Source: Psammoneis japonica
Taxonomy: Eukaryota
Direction of reading: 5' to 3'
Length of the DNA stretch: 20,000 nt
NCBI GenBank assembly: GCA_008632985.1
Contig: QPGO01000074.1
Span: 371,470-391,469, forward strand
Shown: piece by piece, positions 9,284 through 20,000 of the stretch
Layout of the letters: every line of letters starts with the position of its first letter
Position numbering within the stretch: position 1 is the first letter of the stretch
The notes under the pieces: model-generated
What the model was told of the DNA's origin: nothing
The model's database searches: none
What the model saw: only the letters and a program-made list of their open reading frames with translations
Translations under genes and position numbers: made by a program

Positions 9284-9611
9284 AAGCATTACCTTTTGTG
9301 CATAGGTCGTACTGTACTCTATCTCCAAGTGAAGATACAGACAGAGGACATTAATCAAGGACCTTTCCACTATGTATCTTTTCCCCACGTGCTATAGGCT
9401 TAACCGTAGTAGCCCATTTCAGGCAATGGCTGAAAGTGGAGAAGGGTGTTGTAGCTACAGAGTTTTCGGAGAAGGTATTCGACTGTATTCGTAGGCAAGA
9501 ATAACTCTTTGTTTTCGTGCGGAGCGAGTTTGAAAATTAAATTCGAACAATCTATGCTGTACCAGGGGTCGGCTTCTATGAGCCACACACAGTCCGCCAC
9601 ATGTACGGGTT

Positions 9612-9956
9612 CTAGACCTGCCAGAAACCGCAGTCAATTCCACCTTGAATTACAATGGCAAAGATTCCCTCGCCCGGTATCTCCATTGGATCCATGGCAA
9701 CTTTTGCTCCGGCCTTAACAGCCGCCTTGACGGCAGCATGAATGTCCTCAACAAGCATGTACGGTCGCACAACTGGAGTTTCCGTTTCCCGCATGGGCAT
9801 GCGAAGCCCAATCTTTCCTCCATTCAAAAAATCTGCGGTTCGGGCCCCACCAAAATTGGCATTGGGCTCGCTAAATGTCACACCGTGAATTGCCGAGTAC
9901 TGCTCGCACAAGGCATCAACTTTTGATGTGACAATCTCAAGATAATGGACTTTCAT
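9612..9956 (-). CDS. VOC/glyoxalase-bleomycin-resistance superfamily protein, 114 aa, bacterial-like
   Basis: MKVHYLEIVT...VVRPYMLVEDIHAAVKAAVKAGAKVAMDPMEIPGEGIFAIVIQGGIDCGFWQV has the typical VOC C-terminal pattern. Confidence 0.88.
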   Translation of the reverse strand: MKVHYLEIVTSKVDALCEQYSAIHGVTFSEPNANFGGARTADFLNGGKIGLRMPMRETETPVVRPYMLVEDIHAAVKAAVKAGAKVAMDPMEIPGEGIFAIVIQGGIDCGFWQV

Positions 9957-10699
9957 GGGCGTCCCTTTTTGTTGATGAAATCGAATTGACTGTCGAATCA
10001 ATAATAAACAGCAGAAGACAAGCCTATCTTCAATCTCAAGAATCTGCAACAGTAGAATGGCAACAAAGCAAAAAAAAAAAAAAAGATCTTTCGCAAGATC
10101 CACCAGCTGTCGTACCGGTACCAGCAATCAAGAAAAAAATGGCCAAAGAGCGCATTCACCTAAACTGTAACAAAAGCTCTATCGTGCCTTTGACGACTCG
10201 ATGACAGGATCCATCGCATCGGTCCGCCACCATGGTTGTTGTTGGTCCAGCTGCAAAGCTGTGATGCTTGCCATCTTGATCGGCAAATTCAAAGTCGGCC
10301 TCACAATGTCGCTGCTCCCTGCTTTCTTCCACATGGTGGTGCGTGGTGCTCTCTGCGATTCTGAAGCAGCCAGCTGCTCCTTCATCACAGGCAGCCCAAC
10401 CTTCTCAATGCATTTGAGTTGCTCATCGATTGCAGATTTTAGTGGGCATGCCCCATCAAACCCTGCACAAAGCTCCTGCAGTGTCTCTCTGGTGACACCA
10501 GCATGATCAGCACAAGCCAGCGCAACAAGAGAGCTGTGTTTTCTGACGTGAGCTGGCCTGGTGGCTGCTTTGCTTTTTCCACTGGAGCCACCACCCCGCA
10601 TTTCCTTCTGACAATGGGGAGAATGCCAAACTTCTTTCAAGATTAATGGCAGATTGGTTCTGGCCACCAAGCATCTTGCATCATGACACCACACTTTCA

Positions 10700-11727
10700 A
10701 CTGTGATTCAGCGCATCTTTCATTCGCTCGTCATCCGCTTTGATGCTGGACTTCCTGCAGCCACCAGCCATGTTGTCAAATGAGTCTAATGCAAAATTTT
10801 CTTTGTTGTCAAGGAGCTGCAGGACTCTTCCTCTGCTTTGCTGCTTCTGCAAAAATCTGCTTGGCTTTCTCATTGGGGAATGACTTTTCCAGGCATGGGA
10901 GCAAACCAGAAACGATGAAGCGGGCATTGGCAGAGTTGTGTGGAATGAAAGAAAATGTGACTGTGTCATCTTCTTGCTGGCATTGGTTGTCATGGTGCAA
11001 AAATCAAGCAAACCATTTGCCTCACAGGAAATGATCAGTGAGTGGAGAGAGTCGATTTTGACACCTTGCGGGGGGGGGGGGAAGACCAACCCTGCAATTT
11101 TGCAGGATTGACGTTCTGCAGCATGCGCTGTTTCCATGATGTTGTCACAGAAGTTTTTCTGATTGTCGCGGAGCCTCTTGCACTTGAACTCACAGTTTGC
11201 TGTTGCAAGGAATTTGTTCGCAGGGATGAAGTGTGCCCAAGTGTCAAGAGGAAACTCAACAGCCATGGATGAGCAAATGTCAGACACAGCATTGATGGCA
11301 TGGTTGCAGTCTCTTGTTCATGAGCAGCCTCATCATGAAGGATGCACGTGGGGTTCCTTCACTTGCACGCAGTCATTGTTGAGTTAAATCCTGGTCTTCC
11401 AGAGGCAATCACATGCCAGCGGAGGTCAGCTCTGCTCTTTTTCCATGTTTGGTCTAGATGCCTGCAAAAGTCAATCCGTCTAAGTGTTCCACATGAAAAT
11501 GCTGCGTGCACTGCCAGAAGATGCACAATTTATGTTCAAAATTGATTGTCGTTTTGTGCGTCACCGGGACCAGAACACGTCAAACAGCCATCCAATGTTG
11601 GGAGTTTTCTCAACATCTGGGGCAGCATGGAAATGAAGCCCATGTGAAGCTGCACTCAGCTCAGGTTGGGTCTTGTCAGTGAGTGCATTTGCACTGATTG
11701 TGGAGGCCAGAAAAATCAAAGCATGGT
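10700..11727 (-). pseudogene. Decayed repeat-associated ORF (possibly non-LTR retrotransposon ORF1-like), 3' part, interrupted by the LTR element
   Basis: Protein-like fragments in shifting frames: ALIFLASTISANAL..NIGWLF, SDICSSMAVEFPLDTWAHFIP..KRLRDNQKNFC, TVTFSFIPHNSANARFIVSGLLPCL. Family assignment is from recalled resemblance only. Confidence 0.35.
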
Positions 11728-11731
11728 GCAT

Positions 11732-12200
11732 TGAAGCAGGCATCCCTGCCATGTGGCTGCCAATGATGCCACTTTCCTGCGTCTGCAGGCTGTCCGCAGC
11801 AATGCTGATCCCGCAGAAGCATGTTGTAGAAAACACGACTCCCAGTGCAAGACCTGAGACAGGCTACAGGAGTGACCCACGCGACTGAGACCAGCGCGAC
11901 TGGCCATCGCGCACGTGACTCACCTTGCATGAAGGGTCTGCGCATCGCGCAGGATGCAGGGCCCTGCGCAGTGCCGAGCATGAGCCTGCGAATTGGCTCC
12001 ACATGAGTGTCAATGAGTGCCACAAAAGACTTGTGCTTGAGTCTTTCCAATGACTCATCATGCAACAAGAATTCTTGTTTCTTAGAAAAGAACACCATCG
12101 CGCATTTGTGCTCTAACTAAAACAATCTCATAATTTTCACAACACCCAAATCTATCTCTGCAGCGTTGCAAGCACTTGTTCCCCATTTCTGCATGGGTCA
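11732..12200 (+). repeat. 5' LTR (469 bp)
   Basis: TGAAGCAGGCATCCC...CTGCATGGGTCA; aligns end to end with 13700-14213. Confidence 0.92.
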
Positions 12201-12218
12201 TGGCGACATTGCTCCCGG
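12201..12218 (+). promoter_or_regulatory. Putative primer-binding site
   Basis: TGGCGACATTGCTCCCGG begins immediately after the LTR-terminal CA; TGG is complementary to tRNA CCA. The cognate tRNA is not identified. Confidence 0.7.
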
Positions 12219-12248
12219 CAAGTGCAAGAACAGTTTGCTTGGTTGACA

Positions 12249-13436
12249 ATGAAGGTCGGACAAACAGCGCTTAGCGCATTCATGACACTGGCGGTCGTTC
12301 CACCGATTGCCTTTCAACGTCCGGTCCCCAGGGTTCTGAAAGAGAACCAAAGTCAGACGTGCAAACTGCACACGAACCCAAATGACCCAGATGGTCCTGC
12401 GCATGAACTTGCGGTCACCTGCTTCTCGGCGCAGTCACCTGAAGAATGGCTCCTTGTTGTAAAGGACTGTGACCGTGCATGCATCAGGCAGAACATTGCG
12501 ACAGGACCCGGTGAATTTTTGCTCACAAGAAGGCTGTTAGAGGGTGATGCCCTTGCTGCCTTTGACAATGCAGCGGCGAACGAAAATGCAGAAATGGCAA
12601 TGTTGTTGGCATGTTGCATGGCTGCTGTCACCAAAAGTGTTTTCCCAGAAAGGGCTGCATTGACACAGAAGTGCCGTTTAAGGCATTTCATGCAAAAGCC
12701 GTTAGATGTCAAAATTCGTGAGCATGTCACTCGTGCCATAGAAATCAATGAGTGCATTCCAAAATTTCCACCAGTTGAAGACAATGGACAAGCTCCGCAA
12801 GTGCCATCCGAAGATGAGTTGGTTGATTTGTTGGAATGTGGCATTCCACGGCTGTGGCAGCGCCAAATGAAGTTGCAAGGATTCAATCCTTTGGCACACA
12901 CTGTTCCAGAATTTGTCTCATTCTGTGAGCATGTGGAAGAAGTTGAGGCTGCTGACAAGCTCATGGCCTCTGCCTCACCTCAAGACGACCCTGAAGACGC
13001 CAAGATGAAGTCAGCAGATGATCCGATTCCACGCTAACGATCAAGTTCCAAGAGTCCTGCACCAAGCGAGTTGATGTCGGCAGCAAAGGAGTGAGTTTCG
13101 ATGATGTCAGATGGAAAACGTGGTCACCCATGCATGCTTCACGGTGCATGCAACCCCAACACTGACGATTGTTGGTCTCTGAAACGTCAGGTCAAGAAGC
13201 TCAAGACTTTGGATGCACACAGATCCGAGTGCAAGAATGCGCACAAGCGTGACACTGGCGCAAGCAAGGAAGAAATCAACATCATCATTGAACAAGCCAC
13301 AAAAAATGCATTGAAATGTGTGGCACGTGATGACGCGAAGGCAGACAGTGAACTTCATGCCTTTGACAACGCATGCCTCTCTGAAGATTCTGATGCTGAC
13401 ACCGATGATGTGGCAGCAACGAGTCTCCAAGAATGA
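12249..13436 (+). pseudogene. gag: Mutated gag with two in-frame stops (TAA 13035, TGA ~13092) and a degenerate C-terminal Zn-knuckle
   Basis: KLHTNPNDPDGP..SPEEWLL..QNIATGP..RRLLEGDALAAF..VFPERA..KP..EINECIPKFPP..DELVDLLECGIP..WQRQMKLQGFNP..EFVSFCE resembles diatom gypsy gag. ORF 13101-13436 is in the same frame and carries CMLHGACNPNTDDC. Confidence 0.85.
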
Positions 13437-13690
13437 TGGCCGACATGGCAGTGACCTGTGCAACCCCAGTGGCTTGGACAATTTGACAAATGTCCCAATG
13501 CTCCTGAGTGCAGCACTCACTTGTGCATGTTCTGCTGCAGGCCACACATGGCAAAATGTCCAGTGAAATGGCAACAATGACAATGACATCCTTCATGCAT
13601 GAGAAGGCATGTGCGCTGGTTTTTTGGACACACCAACAATGTCCTTTTTCCAGCAGTGGGACCCTTCTGTCACTCATGCGACCTTGTCAC

Positions 13691-13699
13691 AGGGGCGAG
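13691..13699 (+). promoter_or_regulatory. Polypurine tract
   Basis: AGGGGCGAG lies immediately 5' of the TG that starts the 3' LTR. Confidence 0.7.
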
Positions 13700-14213
13700 T
13701 GCAGCAGGCATCCCTGCTGTGGCCGCCGATGATGCCACTTTCCTGCATCTGCAGGCTGTCCGTAGTGACGCTGATCCCACAGAAGCATGTTGTAGAAAAA
13801 ATGACTCCCAGTGTGAGCTGTCTGCAGCGATGCTGATCCCGCAGAAGTGTGTTGCAGAAAACACGACTCCCAGTGCGAGACCTGCAATGGGCTGCAGGAG
13901 TGACCCATGTGACTGAGACCGGTGCGACTGGCCATCGCGCACGTGACTCACCTTGCATGAAGGGTCTGCGCAGGATGTGCGCAGCACCGAGCATGAGCCT
14001 GCGAATTGGCTCCGCATGAGTGTCAACAAGTGTTGCAAAAGACTTGTGCTTGAGTCTTTCCAATGACTCATCATGCAACAAGAATTCTTGTTTCTTAGAA
14101 AAGAACACCATCGTGCATTTGTGCTCTAACTAAAGTGATCTCATGATTTTCACAACACCCAAATCCATCTCTACAATGTCATGAGCACTTGTTCCCCATT
14201 TCTGCACAGGTCA
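13700..14213 (+). repeat. 3' LTR (514 bp)
   Basis: TGCAGCAGGCATCCC...CTGCACAGGTCA. The length difference from the 5' LTR equals a +62 bp duplication and 17 bp of small deletions. Confidence 0.92.
13755..13878 (+). repeat. 62-bp tandem duplication inside the 3' LTR
   Basis: 13755-13816 and 13817-13878 both read GCTGTC...GCTGATCCC...GACTCCCAGTG.GA; the unit is single-copy in the 5' LTR. Confidence 0.9.
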
Positions 14214-14217
14214 GCAT

Positions 14218-14450
14218 GATTGGTTTCCCTCAACAGTTTGGGCAAATGTGGCTTTAAAGTCCTTTTGTGGTTTCACACTGTTGCAAGGGGTGTTGCTTGG
14301 GGAAAAGATTGCTGGGTCTTTGCTGTTGGCAGCACAGGCAGCAATTGCCAAGGTGGAGTCTCCTTCATCTTGGAGGATTTTGAAGAATTCCAGGCACGCA
14401 AGCTTGTCGCAGCTCCTCATTCACATGAGAGTGGGGTTTGATGGGTTGTC
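14218..14450 (-). pseudogene. Upstream part of the decayed ORF interrupted by the LTR element
   Basis: LEFFKILQDEGDSTLAIAACAANSKDPAIFSPSNTP..DFKATFAQTVEG runs up to the TSD. A 1-nt shift is needed to join HHALIFLAST on the other side. Confidence 0.35.
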
Positions 14451-16054
14451 CTTGATTTTGTGGTTCATGGCAGAGGTGATGATTGCACTTGATTGCAACA
14501 GCCGTGTTTGCATTGGATTGCAAAAGGTTTCAGCATTGCAAGGGGGGGGAGGGGGAACTCCTCAATGATTGTGGCAGAGTTCTCATTGTCATGAGCCAAA
14601 GTCATCACATGCCATTTGTGTTGGCTTGTTTGTGCACATTTTCTGCAGAGGGTGCACCAGTGAGGAGCATTGCTGTTGCACCATTGTTTTTGATGATGGG
14701 GGTGCAGTTGACCCTGGTGTGTTTGCTGCATGGCTTGAGGTTGGTGCGGGGAGGAGGCATTGTTGAGTGAGGTTGAGATGTTCCTGTGCAAAAGAGCAGC
14801 AGAAACCATGGGAAGTGTGCAGGACTTCAAAGCATTGTTGTCCACTCTGCCAAAAAGTGCAGGTCAAGCCCAACATGGTGATGCTCAATGCATGGCTTCT
14901 AATCATGCACAGCTGGGGTTCAGCAGTCAAGCTGCGGCAGGTTCTGTGCAGTCACGAGTCAAACACAGGATGTTTGAGCCTGCATTTAAGGTCTCTCTGC
15001 AGGGCTTCAGTGCTTGCATGGAATCATGGTGCTTAAATTGTGCAGGCCAGCCCCAGCTGCAATTGGGGTCCCTGAATGAAAATCAAGTCCAGCATCAGCT
15101 TCATCTTTGTCAAGATCAGCTGTGCACTCATGAGCAATTTGGTGGTGATTTTCCACATGGTTGGTTGAAGACTGGCTGGGTTGAGCATGGCAAGGTGGTT
15201 GGCCTCCTTGGCTCATGGCACAGAAGAAGAAGATCAACCAATCCACAAGCGCACATGATGAGAAGTTTTTCTGCTCTCAGCTCATGGTGGAGACAGTGCC
15301 GAAGCTCCAAAACTCAAATCCCAGAACCTCTCGTGCCAAACAGGAGTGTCAAAGGGGCACTTCTCTTGGCTGGGCTCCTTTGTGCTTTGTGGCTCAAAGC
15401 AGCTCCAGTGGCTGGGGTCCAAGAAGTCAACACACTGCTTCTCTGGGCTGCTGCACAACAATCCCCTCCTTCTGAAAATTTGGTGTCATAAATGCGCACG
15501 ATCGTACGGGTCAAATGGTCTGTCCATCAAACGATTTTCGATTTCGGCTCTGGCACTTGTTTCCCATGGAAGTGGTGGGGTCTGCGTGCACTTCTACGCA
15601 ATGCATGCTAAGAATGCTGCCAACAAATCACTTTTCCCAAGACACTTCATGGCGTTGTTGACCACTGCTCCTGCCTCACGCTGAAGCTTTCCTGCCTGTC
15701 CTTGGCATTGCAGCACTTCTTTTCATCACAATGGTTGTCAACATGAGTGAGTGTGAAGAAGAAATGGAGTCAATTGGCGAGGAAGACCTGGAGCCGCTTG
15801 ACCACAATGAGGCACTGCCGCCAAGCCTGACAGCTCCGAAACATTTGAAGATCGCCTGACAACACAAGGCATTTTACACGGAAGCTGACATGCCAGACAA
15901 AGGATGCAAATGCTTCCGAGTGGAAGAACCAGAAATCTTTGCGTGAGAGCTTCAAAGTGCCAAGGAGCGGAAGGCAGTGGAACAATCAACCATCGCATTG
16001 TGCTTTTCTGATTTGTCTTGTTCGGTTTGGTCCGGCAAGTTCAGGCTTGCACCA

Positions 16055-17233
16055 TCAGATGATGGCAGCAATTGGTGGTTGAATTGATTTGCAAAACCAT
16101 CTCAACAACTGCACTTCTGGTGTCTGGGTCTCTTTCATTGCGTTGAAGTCTTTCTCATTTAAGGAATCATTGAACACAAGAACAGCCTTCACATGAATCA
16201 GAATGAGCAACTTGAGATTCAGGAAGTTGGACTCCTTTGCAAGGAAATGCATTTTTGCAAGAGCATCTGGGTCTTCACAATTTTCATCAAGCAGATTTTC
16301 TTGTCAACTCGGGGGGCTCGGGAGAGCTTCTTGTTGCCACAGTGATTCGATGCTAACTCTTCTGCCGGCATCTGCCGGTGTGCCATCACCGACCATGCAT
16401 CAAACCCTGCTGCATCTTTGCCATGCTTTATTTTTAGTTCTGCATTGTCCACCATCAGCACAAGCCCATCTCCAGGCGCAAATTTTGCCCTGGGCTCAAG
16501 GCAGGCTGCAACAGATTCAGAAGCCTTTGCAACACCAGCCACCAACACAGATGTTGTCACTTTGAAGTTGGCAAGAGCATCTCACCAATGAGTCGCCTTG
16601 TCTTCCTTGCTTGTTCATCGTCTCCACAAAAGCGTTCACATCAGTGCCATTGACGGCAAATGCAAAAACAGACAGTGGCAAGGCCGTTCTGTTTTCTTCT
16701 GACATGAGGTGTTTGAGTGCATTTTTTGAGCTCATTGGGTCAGCCCCATTTCCTGTCATAGCCGCAGGCAAGAGCACGGACAACATGTTCTTGAACATTT
16801 TCGCAACAGTGAGTTTGGTTTGATTGTCATTTGCAGTGATGTCTCCTTTTCTATTGATTGCTGCAAATCCAACTGGGGTGTGTAGCATTTTGCCATCCCC
16901 ATCTGTTTCAACTGCCGCTTGCTCCGCAAGTGGCAGGCCATCTGTTCTGATTGTTCTTGATGCGGTGCCGTCATTTTGTTTCTCCCGGAGGAACTCCAAT
17001 GTTTGTGACTTGGTGGGGTTCCTCTTTTTCTTTTTCTTGACAGGAGCTGGGCATTCAAACTCGACTTCACTTTTTTCCAATTCACAATTTCTCTTTTGGA
17101 TGGTGCGAACTGTCGTGTGGCTGGTGGCGCGTTGATCACAATGCAGTGGGCTCTGGGATGTCTTTTCCACTGGCAAACGAACCATGAGTGAAGACAAATT
17201 TTGCAGCCTCAAGGAGTCAGAGTGACGATGCAC
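16055..17233 (-). pseudogene. Decayed coding-like sequence of unknown family
   Basis: Consecutive minus-strand ORFs (16517-17233, 16219-16560, 16055-16252) have protein-like composition, including the basic stretch PVKKKKKRNP, and no Tyr. No domain recognised. Confidence 0.3.
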
Positions 17234-18041
17234 TCCTCCTCTTGCTCCTCAGCACATTCAACACCATGCAAGTGACATTTTCAATTGTCGTCGTTGTTGT
17301 CGTAATCCGCTGGGGTCGCAACGAGATGGTGCAGGGAAGAAAGAGTGGCTTCACTTCTCCACTTCACGATTTTGAAAATTTGATTTTGGTGTGTTTTTAC
17401 GCACAAGTCTACAATCATCTGGGATGTTCTCAATCCAAGAATGCGAGCTTGGAGAGCTTTCTTGGGTCTCATGAGGGCCACAGGACAGAACAGGACATGT
17501 GATGGTGCACCCACAATGATGTGCAAACTCAGCAACGAACCTTCTGGCAGGGCCAGCTGATCAATCCGATGGAGTCAGTCAGAGTGCTTGACAACAAGGG
17601 CATGGAGTGCAATCAGAGGGAAGCACTGATGGTGTCAGAGCTGCAGATGGTTGCTCCAGTCTGGGTGCCCCCACACACATCAAGTTGCCCCAGCAGCTGG
17701 GGGCGAGCCAACCAGCCGAGCTCGCGTGCACACGGAGATCCAAGTGCCTTCCTGATGCACTGCCTGGATGACCACTCCAGAGCAGCACCTCAGACAGAAT
17801 GCAATCAGAGAGCATCTGCTGATGAGCAGCAGCAGCAAGAGCCCAGTCAACAGCTCAACAAAACTGCCAGTGCAGCCAAATCACAAGCTCTGCCCAAACT
17901 GGATCTGCTGAATGTTCCAAAGCAAGGTTCTCCCACACACTTGTACCAGAGACCAGTGCAAGTTTCAGGGACAACCATCTTCACAACAATCAACCAAGTG
18001 CTGCTGAAACAATCTATGGTGGTCCCAACATGTGCCGGTAG

Positions 18042-20000
18042 ACGGCCTGTGATCCGCAAAGCAACGAGCTAGAAATTCAGGGCGACCGGAAGATTGGGTC
18101 GGTGGACAGACGACCCTGGAGCGAGGCAACGCCAACGAACACAAACCCCAGCCATGATGATGCAAGCAATCGCGACGAGTGGCTCTCTCAGATCAAGGGG
18201 GAAATCCAGGATGAATTGGGCGCTGCATGGCGTGAAAGCCGTTGGACGGAGTTTATTGAGGAAGTATTGTGGTCCCTGCACGAGAATGATATCGTTGACG
18301 GAGACACGATTCGCACCGCCGAGGGCCTTATCAAGTGCGGAGTACGAACCAAGAAGCATCTGATTGCAATGGCCGGAAAGCCTCCCGACGATGAAAAATT
18401 GTCGAGAAAGCTTGAGGCGAAAGGCGTGTCTCTCGTCATCTGCGCTATGTTGTTCAACGAGTACGTCCATGTGAATCGAGATGGTAAGTCTGACTGGCGT
18501 TGTACATATTGAATATGTGTCAAACATACTGTACAGTATCTCGTTCTTGGTTTCTATTGTTCCATCGCATATACGGTTTCAACTATAAAAACTCATCCTG
18601 ATTGTACTTGTCTATTCTTTTCAAAGTAGCTTCACTACAGCAGCAGCAGCAGCGGACTGGCATGTTTACTGTCTTCGTGAGAAACCACAATTTGTCAGTC
18701 ACGAATGTTATTAAGTTCCACGATAAGCGTTTTCCATCGACTGTGGGTGAGTTCTGGGAGGCGACAGGCCTTGAATGGACCGTTGACTCTGCGTGTGTCA
18801 CGGTAAAAATGCTTATGGGCTGGGAAAAATTGAGCGACAATCCCAAAAATACAGCAAATTATGCTGAGGGTGACCCCAGCTTCGGGATTATGTTTCAGTT
18901 GTCGCCTTACCGTACTCCTACATCAAGTCCTATTAGCGACGAATACATCAGTATCCAGGCCGAGGAGGAGTCGAATTTTGCTGAATGTATCCAAAACTTA
19001 TTTCGCGAGAATCCTTTCAATGCAGCTATACCAGAGCTGTACGAAGACGGGGCGATCCGTGGGTTACGATTGTTCTTCCAGCAGGGAAGAGAAGAAAGAA
19101 CAAGGTCGTTGGCTTCGGAGGTGAAAACGCTTGCTCTGATATTTGCGATGCCTGGGGCAGGAAAGACTCGGACTGTACAAGAAGCAGCTCATAGTCTTGG
19201 TTTGGAGTATCACAGATTCAAGATGTCTAACGCAAACTTGTCCACGATGAGAGAGGTAAGGCAGTTCCTCTTGAAAAGGGTAGCAACACTCTGCGACTGC
19301 GAAACGAATGCGATACCTCTAGAGAGAAAGGTGCTGGTGCTTCATTTTGATGAAATTCAATCAATTATGAGAGCTCCACGTGATGACGGAGACAGAGATA
19401 ATTCCCTTGTGACCACGCTGGCCAAAGAATGTGATGCGTTGATTAACAAACATGGGGAGAACCAACGTTCGTGGCTCAAGTTTGTAATGACAGGCACCAA
19501 TATCTTCTCGGACACACAGATCAATGTGGGCAGTCAAGTGAAAACAGAATTGATACCGATGGGGGGCTCTTTTTCTCATGACTTTGTATGCCAGCTTGCG
19601 AGGAAATATAATCTCATGCCATTTTTCGCTGAAGACAACGAGAAATATCTGGAACGCTGTCGCCAACCGACGCTTTACCGAACGATTTTTCTGTGCTTTG
19701 TGGGACAAACGAGGCGAGGGCATCGCTGATCCCTCCGTTGTGGATGATGCGTATCACTCGGCACTCAGTGCAATGAGTCGACAAATTGCTGGAAACATGG
19801 GAGGAGAAACTATCAACGTATCTTCAGTTGCATGCACTGTCTTCGCAAAGATTCTGGATATCAACTCTGAGATGATAGTCAACGGCATCGCAATACTCAA
19901 AACTGTTCCATGACTGAGAAGTCTTATATTGCGGGTGGCGGGTTCAACGTGAAGGAAATGATGGGGAGCGATATTTCAATCTTCTACCCCGCTGGATGTG
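18042..20000 (+). CDS. Crinkler/RHS-like protein: helical (SAM-like) header, polyQ linker and P-loop NTPase; one intron, apparent frameshifts ~19665 and ~19910, 3'-partial
   Basis: Walker A AMPGAGKT and Walker B LVLHFDEIQ in ORF 18602-19729. The upstream exon (frame open from 18042 to 18483) splices in frame. Coding-like sequence continues in shifted frames (NRRFTERFF..., MTEKSYIAGGGFNV...). Confidence 0.65.
18484..18626 (+). other. Spliceosomal intron (phase 1)
   Basis: GTAAGT donor at 18484, AT-rich body, pyrimidine tract and AAG acceptor at 18626. The alternative TAG at 18629 is also in frame. Confidence 0.75.

Follow-up and report, generated by a model that had tools for sequence, protein, structure and literature searches.

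TpA and CpG depletion across a retrotransposon island in a diatom genome: probable hypermutation after integration, of the kind described in Bigelowiella natans

The closest described counterpart of the locus studied here is the hypermutation of integrated viral DNA in the alga Bigelowiella natans, in which TpA is converted to TpG or CpA (Mettrop et al., bioRxiv 10.64898/2026.01.13.699255); this preprint of 2026, on one alga, is the first report of TpA-specific A:T to G:C mutation of invading DNA in a eukaryote. According to its text, 231 of 302 de novo mutations fell in two integrated viral regions, all of them at TpA and at about 1000-fold the background rate, clusters and transposon-type genes depleted in TpA and enriched in CpA+TpG are also present, and an ADAT2-like deaminase is proposed, without test (bioRxiv 10.64898/2026.01.13.699255). 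Here we analyze a 20-kb stretch of contig QPGO01000074.1 (49% GC; hereafter the window). It comes from a diatom nuclear genome, and its right half contains an island of transposon-derived DNA (hereafter the block) with a decayed long terminal repeat (LTR) retrotransposon and a striking scarcity of both TpA and CpG (TA and CG in the counts below). We consider it probable, at roughly seven chances in ten, that after integration this island underwent two transition processes restricted to the same domain: conversion of CpG to TpG or CpA by way of cytosine methylation, and conversion of TpA to TpG or CpA of the kind found in B. natans.

The likeness to B. natans covers the change itself, TpA to TpG/CpA on either strand, its confinement to foreign or selfish DNA that lies in blocks amid normal host DNA, the combination of TpA depletion with CpA+TpG excess and the presence of transposon-type genes; the two hosts are, moreover, both members of Sar. 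The differences are as instructive. B. natans is a chlorarachniophyte (Rhizaria) and its targets are a giant virus and a virophage, whereas the present host, as a diatom, is a stramenopile and the target is an LTR-retrotransposon island. TA makes up 3.3% of dinucleotides in the region of nucleocytoplasmic large DNA virus (NCLDV) origin in B. natans, as given in the preprint, against 0.62% in the block, a far deeper loss. CpG decay is co-located with TpA loss here, while the term "CpG" is absent from the main text of the preprint; similarly, TA loss here follows a rule at the level of tetranucleotides, with TAY lost and YTAA kept (Y, a pyrimidine), while "context" and "trinucleotide" are absent from the preprint text, its figures and supplements aside. 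Finally, mutation-accumulation evidence exists for B. natans, and a footprint for the window. What is new is thus the diatom host, the retrotransposon-island target, the co-located CpG decay and the context rule. The original prediction, made from the letters of the window, had known of no described system of this kind, a position overtaken by the measurement of the same hypermutation in B. natans.

Repeat-induced point mutation (RIP) of ascomycete fungi is likewise an in-situ, dinucleotide-specific transition hypermutation of selfish DNA that affects both strands and ruins coding capacity. RIP, however, changes C to T, mainly at CpA, so that it creates TpA and AT-rich DNA, and it depends on duplication, whereas here TpA is destroyed, base composition is unchanged (GC 0.50 in the block, 0.48 in the flanks) and no dependence on duplication is established. 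RIP was rejected as the source of the pattern because TA is ten-fold depleted relative to expectation at unchanged GC, and deamination of 5-methylcytosine was rejected as the source of TA loss because it does not remove TA; on both of these the original prediction had argued correctly. Enzymes of the TadA/ADAT family deaminate adenine with T or U directly on its 5' side (U33-A34 of tRNA), a preference shared by TadA-derived base editors, and the natural site of bacterial TadA, U-A-C, is reminiscent of the TAY rule; we know of no natural member of the family established as a chromatin-targeted DNA mutator. Methylation-driven CpG decay, which includes the TCG-biased hypermutation of transposons described for basidiomycetes (PMC3318451), converts CG to TG or CA and explains the CG half of the present footprint, but TA is not removable by it; the LTR elements of P. 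tricornutum are described as CpG-methylated (PMC2806351). APOBEC3/ADAR editing of animal retroelements (PMC4866542), as described there, similarly leaves deaminase hypermutation recorded in integrated retroelements, but its substrate is cDNA or RNA that has yet to integrate, and it is strand-biased; the LTRs studied here, by contrast, diverged once integrated, with products balanced between the strands. The diatom literature searched, including passages of PMC2806351, PMC4504042 and 10.1101/2025.10.24.684338, yielded no account of TpA being lost from diatom transposons.

The block 10200-18040 (7841 bp) contains exactly 49 TA, the number that had been estimated by hand, equivalent to 6.2 per kb and an observed/expected ratio (o/e) of 0.10, versus 404 TA in the 12159 bp of the flanks (33 per kb, o/e 0.50). 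At the flank rate, about 260 TA would be expected in the block (binomial p for 49 or fewer, 1.8e-59). TA o/e in 500-bp windows ranges from 0.03 to 0.21 within the block versus 0.21 to 0.86 elsewhere, and is at most 0.21 in each window from 10501 to 17501; the long TA-free runs noticed earlier are real and extend over 13035-13763 (728 bp) and 14255-14900 (645 bp). TG and CA, also correctly described as abundant, number 836 and 829, an excess that is symmetric between the strands (o/e 1.63 and 1.77, versus 1.25 and 1.20 in the flanks). CG, which the original prediction had not stressed, is scarce as well, with 206 occurrences and an o/e of 0.43 versus 1.05 in the flanks. In all, roughly nine tenths of the TA and more than half of the CG of this 7.8-kb island have gone over to TG/CA. 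The losses and gains balance: TA+CG are down by 6.1% of the dinucleotides of the block and TG+CA are up by 5.9%. Maximum-likelihood change points, fitted separately for each signal, delimit 10181-18250 for TA, 9906-18035 for CG and 10226-18035 for TG+CA and so agree within about 50-300 bp; the edges of the block are sharp (about 10190 and 18036) and adjoin ordinary genes. The CG loss is itself context-dependent: GCGC escapes it (3.06 per kb in the block versus 1.56 in the flanks), but the densities of TCGA, ACGG/CCGT and ACGA/TCGT are 3- to 5-fold lower in 10200-18040.

Before any biology is read into these counts, the sequence itself has to be trusted. The reading frame of the coatomer gamma gene in the left flank (2-2671) is broken by 1-nt frameshifts (near 790-800, 1235-1245 and 1305-1315), not by introns, and because these sit at short base runs, as is typical of unpolished long-read assembly, they point to an error-prone, long-read-style assembly as the source of the window. 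In such a consensus, modified bases of heterochromatin could have been miscalled. We regard this explanation as very improbable. In a sequencing run, X1, 76% of the 31-mers sampled from 9300-18900 are present, and contigs of X1, which have a depth of about 60 and reach 315 kb, agree with 9300-11081, 11070-11452, 14133-14987, 14989-15551 and 17368-17967, with 0-6 differences each. Together these pieces cover 3.2 kb or more of the block. Had some 210 TA been miscalled over its 7.8 kb, hardly any 31-mers would be shared. Moreover, where X1 differs from the window it has CA for TG or CG for TG, and TA is not restored at scale. A consensus artefact is therefore unlikely, with a small doubt remaining.

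The TA loss is mutational and took place in DNA after insertion. This follows from four independent lines of evidence: the residues of the gag gene, the composition of the family to which it belongs, the divergence of the two LTRs and the other copies in the genome. The predicted presence of a transposon in the block is borne out by an LTR element at 11732-14213, bounded by a target-site duplication (TSD; Table 1). Its gag has not a single Tyr in 407 codons, versus 1.8-4.6% Tyr in 38 homologues. None of seven conserved Tyr is kept, where homologues keep 3-6, and four of the seven are now Cys or His (homologues 0-1), the products of TAY to CAY or TGY; replacement by both Cys and His means that both strands were affected. 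CpG decay has left its mark on the same protein, with six of 14 conserved Arg now Cys, His, Gln or Trp (homologues 0-2), the products of CGN to TGN or CAN. The result was the same with 40 database homologues. Arg190 and Arg272, conserved in at least 90% of homologues, now read His. At one site, the conserved Arg-Tyr of the gag motif QKRYMRR reads Cys-Arg (12672-12677); a change of Tyr to Arg needs TA to become CG, which goes beyond a single TpA change.

Alternatively, the elements, or a foreign donor, might be naturally poor in TA and CG, as RNA viruses avoid UpA and CpG; joint avoidance of CpG and UpA with an excess of UpG and CpA is a known compositional pattern (PMC3829696). The family does not behave in this way. 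All 79 related metagenome loci have TA o/e of 0.45-1.11 (median 0.81), so that the gag family is not natively TA-poor and none of its loci comes near 0.10, and one of 867 1-kb windows of these loci falls below 0.35. Four of the 79 (L004, L008, L062 and L070) do show a mild joint depletion (TA 0.48-0.67, CG 0.43-0.56, TG/CA 1.23-1.46), which speaks for a native bias; these could be early stages, or relatives from the same host group, and the gag and pol open reading frames (ORFs) of L008 are intact. In the window, however, a gag with Arg190 and Arg272 changed to His and with two in-frame stops is not under maintaining selection, and the LTRs diverged after insertion at precisely the dinucleotides in question. 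Native composition or selection thus has, in our estimation, only a slender chance of being the explanation.

The LTR pair carries the argument on timing. The two LTRs belong to a single TSD-bounded insertion and were identical at integration; because they now differ at pyrimidine-purine (YR) steps, the changes arose after insertion. The well-aligned core of the LTRs has 41 mismatches in 440 columns, 39 of them transitions and 35 interconversions among CG, TA, TG and CA, and 38 of the 41 lie at the 236 YR positions versus 3 at the 204 others (16% versus 1.5%). Over the whole LTR alignment, the 54 mismatches include nine TG/CA doublets, 13 changes between CG and TG/CA and five between TA and TG/CA. 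A TG/CA doublet requires that an ancestral TA or CG changed independently in each LTR, on opposite strands. The element as a whole is milder in its depletion (TA 0.13, CG 0.60) than the DNA around the insertion (TA 0.07-0.09, CG 0.33-0.37), as expected if damage builds up in place. From the LTR pair we infer that a susceptible TA was hit with a probability well above one half per copy, and that the rate excess over non-target positions is of the order of a hundred-fold. The 3' LTR also carries a 62-bp tandem duplication (13718-13875), the units of which are 65% identical and differ by interconversions of CG, TA, TG and CA.

These observations bear directly on the idea that the DNA was TA-poor already at integration, through A-to-I editing at UA in RNA or through cDNA deamination during the retrotransposition cycle. 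That the sole identifiable element of the block is a retrotransposon would suit such editing, as would the preference of ADAR/ADAT-type editing for U before the edited A, noted in the B. natans preprint (bioRxiv 10.64898/2026.01.13.699255). Yet LTRs within one TSD differ at 38 of 236 YR versus 3 of 204 other positions and contain nine TG/CA doublets, the products are equal on both strands (with Tyr replaced by both Cys and His), single-copy DNA without retroelement features is equally depleted, and CpG decay, a DNA process, has the same borders. The targets in B. natans, as that preprint describes them, are integrated DNA viruses. Editing within the retrotransposition cycle therefore seems improbable to us, and mutation of the integrated DNA remains the preferred reading.

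Other copies in the genome point the same way. The comparison of the window with other X1 contigs covers 40 of 925 differences; these include five TG/CA doublets (10383-10385, 10449-10450, 12805-12806, 14461-14462 and 16278-16279), five sites with CG where the window has TG and three sites (16000, 16020 and 16050) with TA where the window has TG or CA; the reverse, TG for a TA of the window, occurs at one. Several of the differing contigs are at single-copy depth and otherwise at least 99% identical to the window, which suggests near-identical alleles still diverging at pyrimidine-purine steps. The doublets may represent diploid alleles mutated independently from TA or CG, and would then hint at recent or ongoing activity. 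Together with the gag residues, the LTR differences and the near-equal numbers of TG and CA, these copies confirm the direction of change put forward originally, from TA to TG or CA on either strand.

The TA that survive are not a random sample. Of the 48 with full context, 25 are YTAR, where R is a purine (CTAA/TTAG 17, TTAA 7, CTAG 1). Among the 404 TA of the flanks, YTAR accounts for 49 (Fisher p 9e-10), and among the 19922 of the family loci for 5183 (p 2e-4). ATAT and ATAC/GTAT are missing from the block, GTAC is at 0.08 of its flank density and non-YTAR TA as a whole are at about 10%, while YTAA/TTAR occur at about flank density. The LTR pair shows the same preference: the five TA sites at which the LTRs differ are without exception non-YTAR, and each of the three retained in both is YTAR. 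On the simplest reading, the A in 5'-TAY-3' (equivalently the T in 5'-RTA-3') would be a good substrate, and YTAA/TTAR would survive.

Both of the proposed processes would act on self-complementary pyrimidine-purine steps, on either strand. The change of CpG to TpG/CpA would be the ordinary outcome of cytosine methylation in silenced transposons, and we read the CG to TG/CA changes as the work of methylation, a second process in that domain. The change of TpA to TpG/CpA would be an A:T to G:C hypermutation that is almost saturated and spares YTAA/TTAR. Its most likely chemistry is adenine deamination at TpA in silenced DNA: the adenine of 5'-TA-3' would be deaminated by a polynucleotide deaminase of TadA/ADAT-like type recruited to silenced or foreign chromatin, replication would treat the resulting inosine as G, and the loss of Tyr codons and of TA-rich regulatory motifs would disable the selfish DNA.

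The same in-situ process could, as a minor possibility, run on a different chemistry. The T of TpA might be modified, for example to 5-hydroxymethyluracil (5hmU) or 5-formyluracil by a TET/JBP-type dioxygenase, and then pair with G to give T to C; or an error-prone repair patch might be responsible. Dinoflagellate 5hmU and kinetoplastid base J favour a T that is followed by A, and 5-formyluracil forms mispairs with G. Since TA is palindromic, T to C in 5'-RTA-3' would leave the same footprint as A to G in 5'-TAY-3'. Nothing in the window favours modification of T, however, and the only experimental precedent proposes, in the preprint text, an ADAT2-like deaminase, itself a proposal. Against error-prone repair with the WA motif (A or T before A) of polymerase eta, AA is not depleted (o/e 1.18 in the block, 1.23 in the flanks); this polymerase, with a change of WA to WG, had been among the mechanisms of the original prediction, where it proves a poor fit, and it was rejected; the other two mechanisms named there, a TadA-like deaminase and a mutagenic base modification, both stay candidates. 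Adenine deamination thus remains the chemistry that we favour for the TpA half of the footprint.

As to the target, the original prediction had the process restricted to repeats. Confinement to a block of transposon-derived DNA stands, but restriction to repeats is not supported. In run X1 the LTRs have a summed depth about 40 times that of single-copy DNA, and most other parts of the block 2-10 times, but at an identity threshold of 80% two segments, 10905-11225 and 14436-15398, have single-copy depth (about 60). They have TA o/e of 0.00 and 0.05, with a CG o/e of 0.12 in 14436-15398, whereas a multi-copy gene region at 18288-18900 (summed depth 260-350) is normal in both TA and CG. Because single-copy DNA is depleted, multi-copy DNA is spared and CpG decay shares the borders, the target looks like a domain, probably of silenced chromatin, rather than copy number. 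Another run, X2, the kind of which was guessed, covers the flanks and scarcely the block, and says nothing on silencing.

Several points weigh against the interpretation as a whole or against parts of it. Only a footprint is observed, and because TA is palindromic, so that A to G is indistinguishable from T to C, the deaminase chemistry is deduced and not observed. The B. natans spectrum is purely AT to GC, whereas CpG decay accompanies it here, so that an almost exclusively AT to GC spectrum is not what the block presents (CG o/e 0.43, 13 differences between CG and TG/CA in the LTR pair, six of 14 Arg). The gag homologues used to polarize the Tyr and Arg losses are 27-46% identical and come from other organisms, and the comparison with other genomic copies draws on the small share of differences stated above. 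The context rule has its own difficulties. CTAG, formally YTAR, is depleted, with one in the block versus 13 in larger flanks, and relative to the family loci YTAR is reduced too, to 0.18 of their density (other TA, 0.057), so that the "full retention" of YTAA depends on the reference chosen. A context-wise mass balance with the flanks as proxy for the ancestor fails (r = -0.30); the flanks represent the ancestral tetranucleotide make-up poorly. Lastly, the small doubt about the consensus persists because run X1 has no recorded platform and may come from the source sample of the window.

The coordinates of the element and of the block are collected in Table 1.

Table 1. Features of the depleted block, in positions of the window.
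Feature	Position	Strand	Basis
TA-/CG-depleted, TG/CA-enriched block (transposon island)	10181..18040	.	Dinucleotide counts, change points; mostly multi-copy in run X1
Older depleted DNA left of LTR element	10200..11731	.	TA o/e 0.07, CG 0.37; contains single-copy 10905-11225; no Pfam/pol similarity
Target-site duplication GCAT, left	11728..11731	+	Identical GCAT just outside both LTRs
5' LTR (TG...CA), about 40 genome copies	11732..12200	+	Aligns with 13700-14213; X1 summed depth 1200-2500 versus ~60 for single-copy
Primer-binding-site-like TGGCGAC...	12201..12216	+	Directly 3' of 5' LTR; read from sequence (predicted)
Decayed gag gene, 395 codons, no Tyr codon	12249..13436	+	In-frame stops TAA 13035, TGA 13092; homologue searches
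Polypurine-tract-like CAGGGGCGAG	13690..13699	+	Precedes 3' LTR; read from sequence (predicted)
3' LTR with internal 62-bp tandem duplication (13718-13875)	13700..14213	+	LTR alignment
Target-site duplication GCAT, right	14214..14217	+	Identical to left GCAT
Older depleted DNA right of LTR element	14214..18040	.	TA o/e 0.09, CG 0.33; contains single-copy 14436-15398; no Pfam/pol similarity

The LTRs form a direct repeat of 470/514 bp that starts with TG and ends with CA. A word-indexed protein search with gag gave no matches, while an exhaustive HMMER search defined a large family: 1498 homologues reach E<=0.001, and 111 of them E<=1e-30. In metagenome relatives (e.g. L001 and L008), reverse transcriptase, RNaseH and integrase follow gag in Ty3/gypsy order. 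No pol was found in the window by tblastn with 148 ORFs from the 79 related loci (E<=1e-3), in which only 12213-13433 matched, the stretch over which the matches to the gag region run. Judged by its sequence, the element is a non-autonomous derivative of a Ty3/gypsy-type LTR retrotransposon: it has the TG..CA LTRs, the TSD, primer-binding-site- and polypurine-tract-like sites and gag, but not the protease-reverse transcriptase-RNaseH-integrase pol, and it is called gag-only because there is no pol remnant in the window. Searches of Pfam with 17 ORFs of the block, or with its six frames read through stops, returned no credible family. The other ORFs of the block are near chance length once the rarity of TAA and TAG is allowed for (longest 306 aa; simulated mean 215, 95th percentile 294).

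The genes of the flanks are eukaryotic and intronless and encode coatomer gamma, a DnaJ protein, an S41 peptidase, an LtrA-like protein and a P-loop NTPase. Because the C-terminal part of coatomer gamma is 66-71% identical to proteins of Nitzschia inconspicua, Seminavis robusta, Fistulifera solaris, Cylindrotheca, Pseudo-nitzschia and Mayamaea, the host is, on this protein evidence, a diatom, and not the rhizarian B. natans. The LtrA-like ORF has one match, at 30% identity. The P-loop NTPase ORF (18042-19726) adjoins the block on the right and has a weak Pfam match to AAA, together with STAND/NACHT-like and Crinkler-associated leads, all below 0.9; in X1 its region has about 4-6 times single-copy depth and normal TA and CG, and thus represents a multi-copy gene family that was spared. 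About 100 bp left of the block edge, a run of about 17 A lies at 10066-10085, in the spacer after a minus-strand ORF (9615-10127).

We put forward, tentatively and as the less probable outcome, that TpA-directed DNA adenine deamination at 5'-TAY-3' may be a chromatin-guided arm of genome defence common to distant Sar algae, and perhaps to more eukaryotes, that works on silenced domains which cytosine methylation also targets, and is saturating on diatom retrotransposon islands. The window ties the process to retrotransposons and to domains undergoing CpG decay. It also has practical consequences. The dating of insertions by LTR divergence would be badly inflated in diatoms, since the present pair differs at 9.3% of its core (41/440) versus 1.5% at non-target positions, and exact-word homology searches miss such elements (0 matches, versus 1498 by exhaustive HMMER). 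A sharper motif, with TAY lost and YTAA spared, is provided for testing candidate deaminases or base-modifying enzymes. If the proposal is true, two distant hosts with the footprint would allow the enzyme to be traced, by comparing the phylogenetic profiles of TadA/ADAT-like or TET/JBP-like paralogues with the presence of TpA-depleted islands. Diatoms are of great ecological weight, and genetic tools for them exist. With a footprint in a second major lineage, the process would be widespread and no curiosity.

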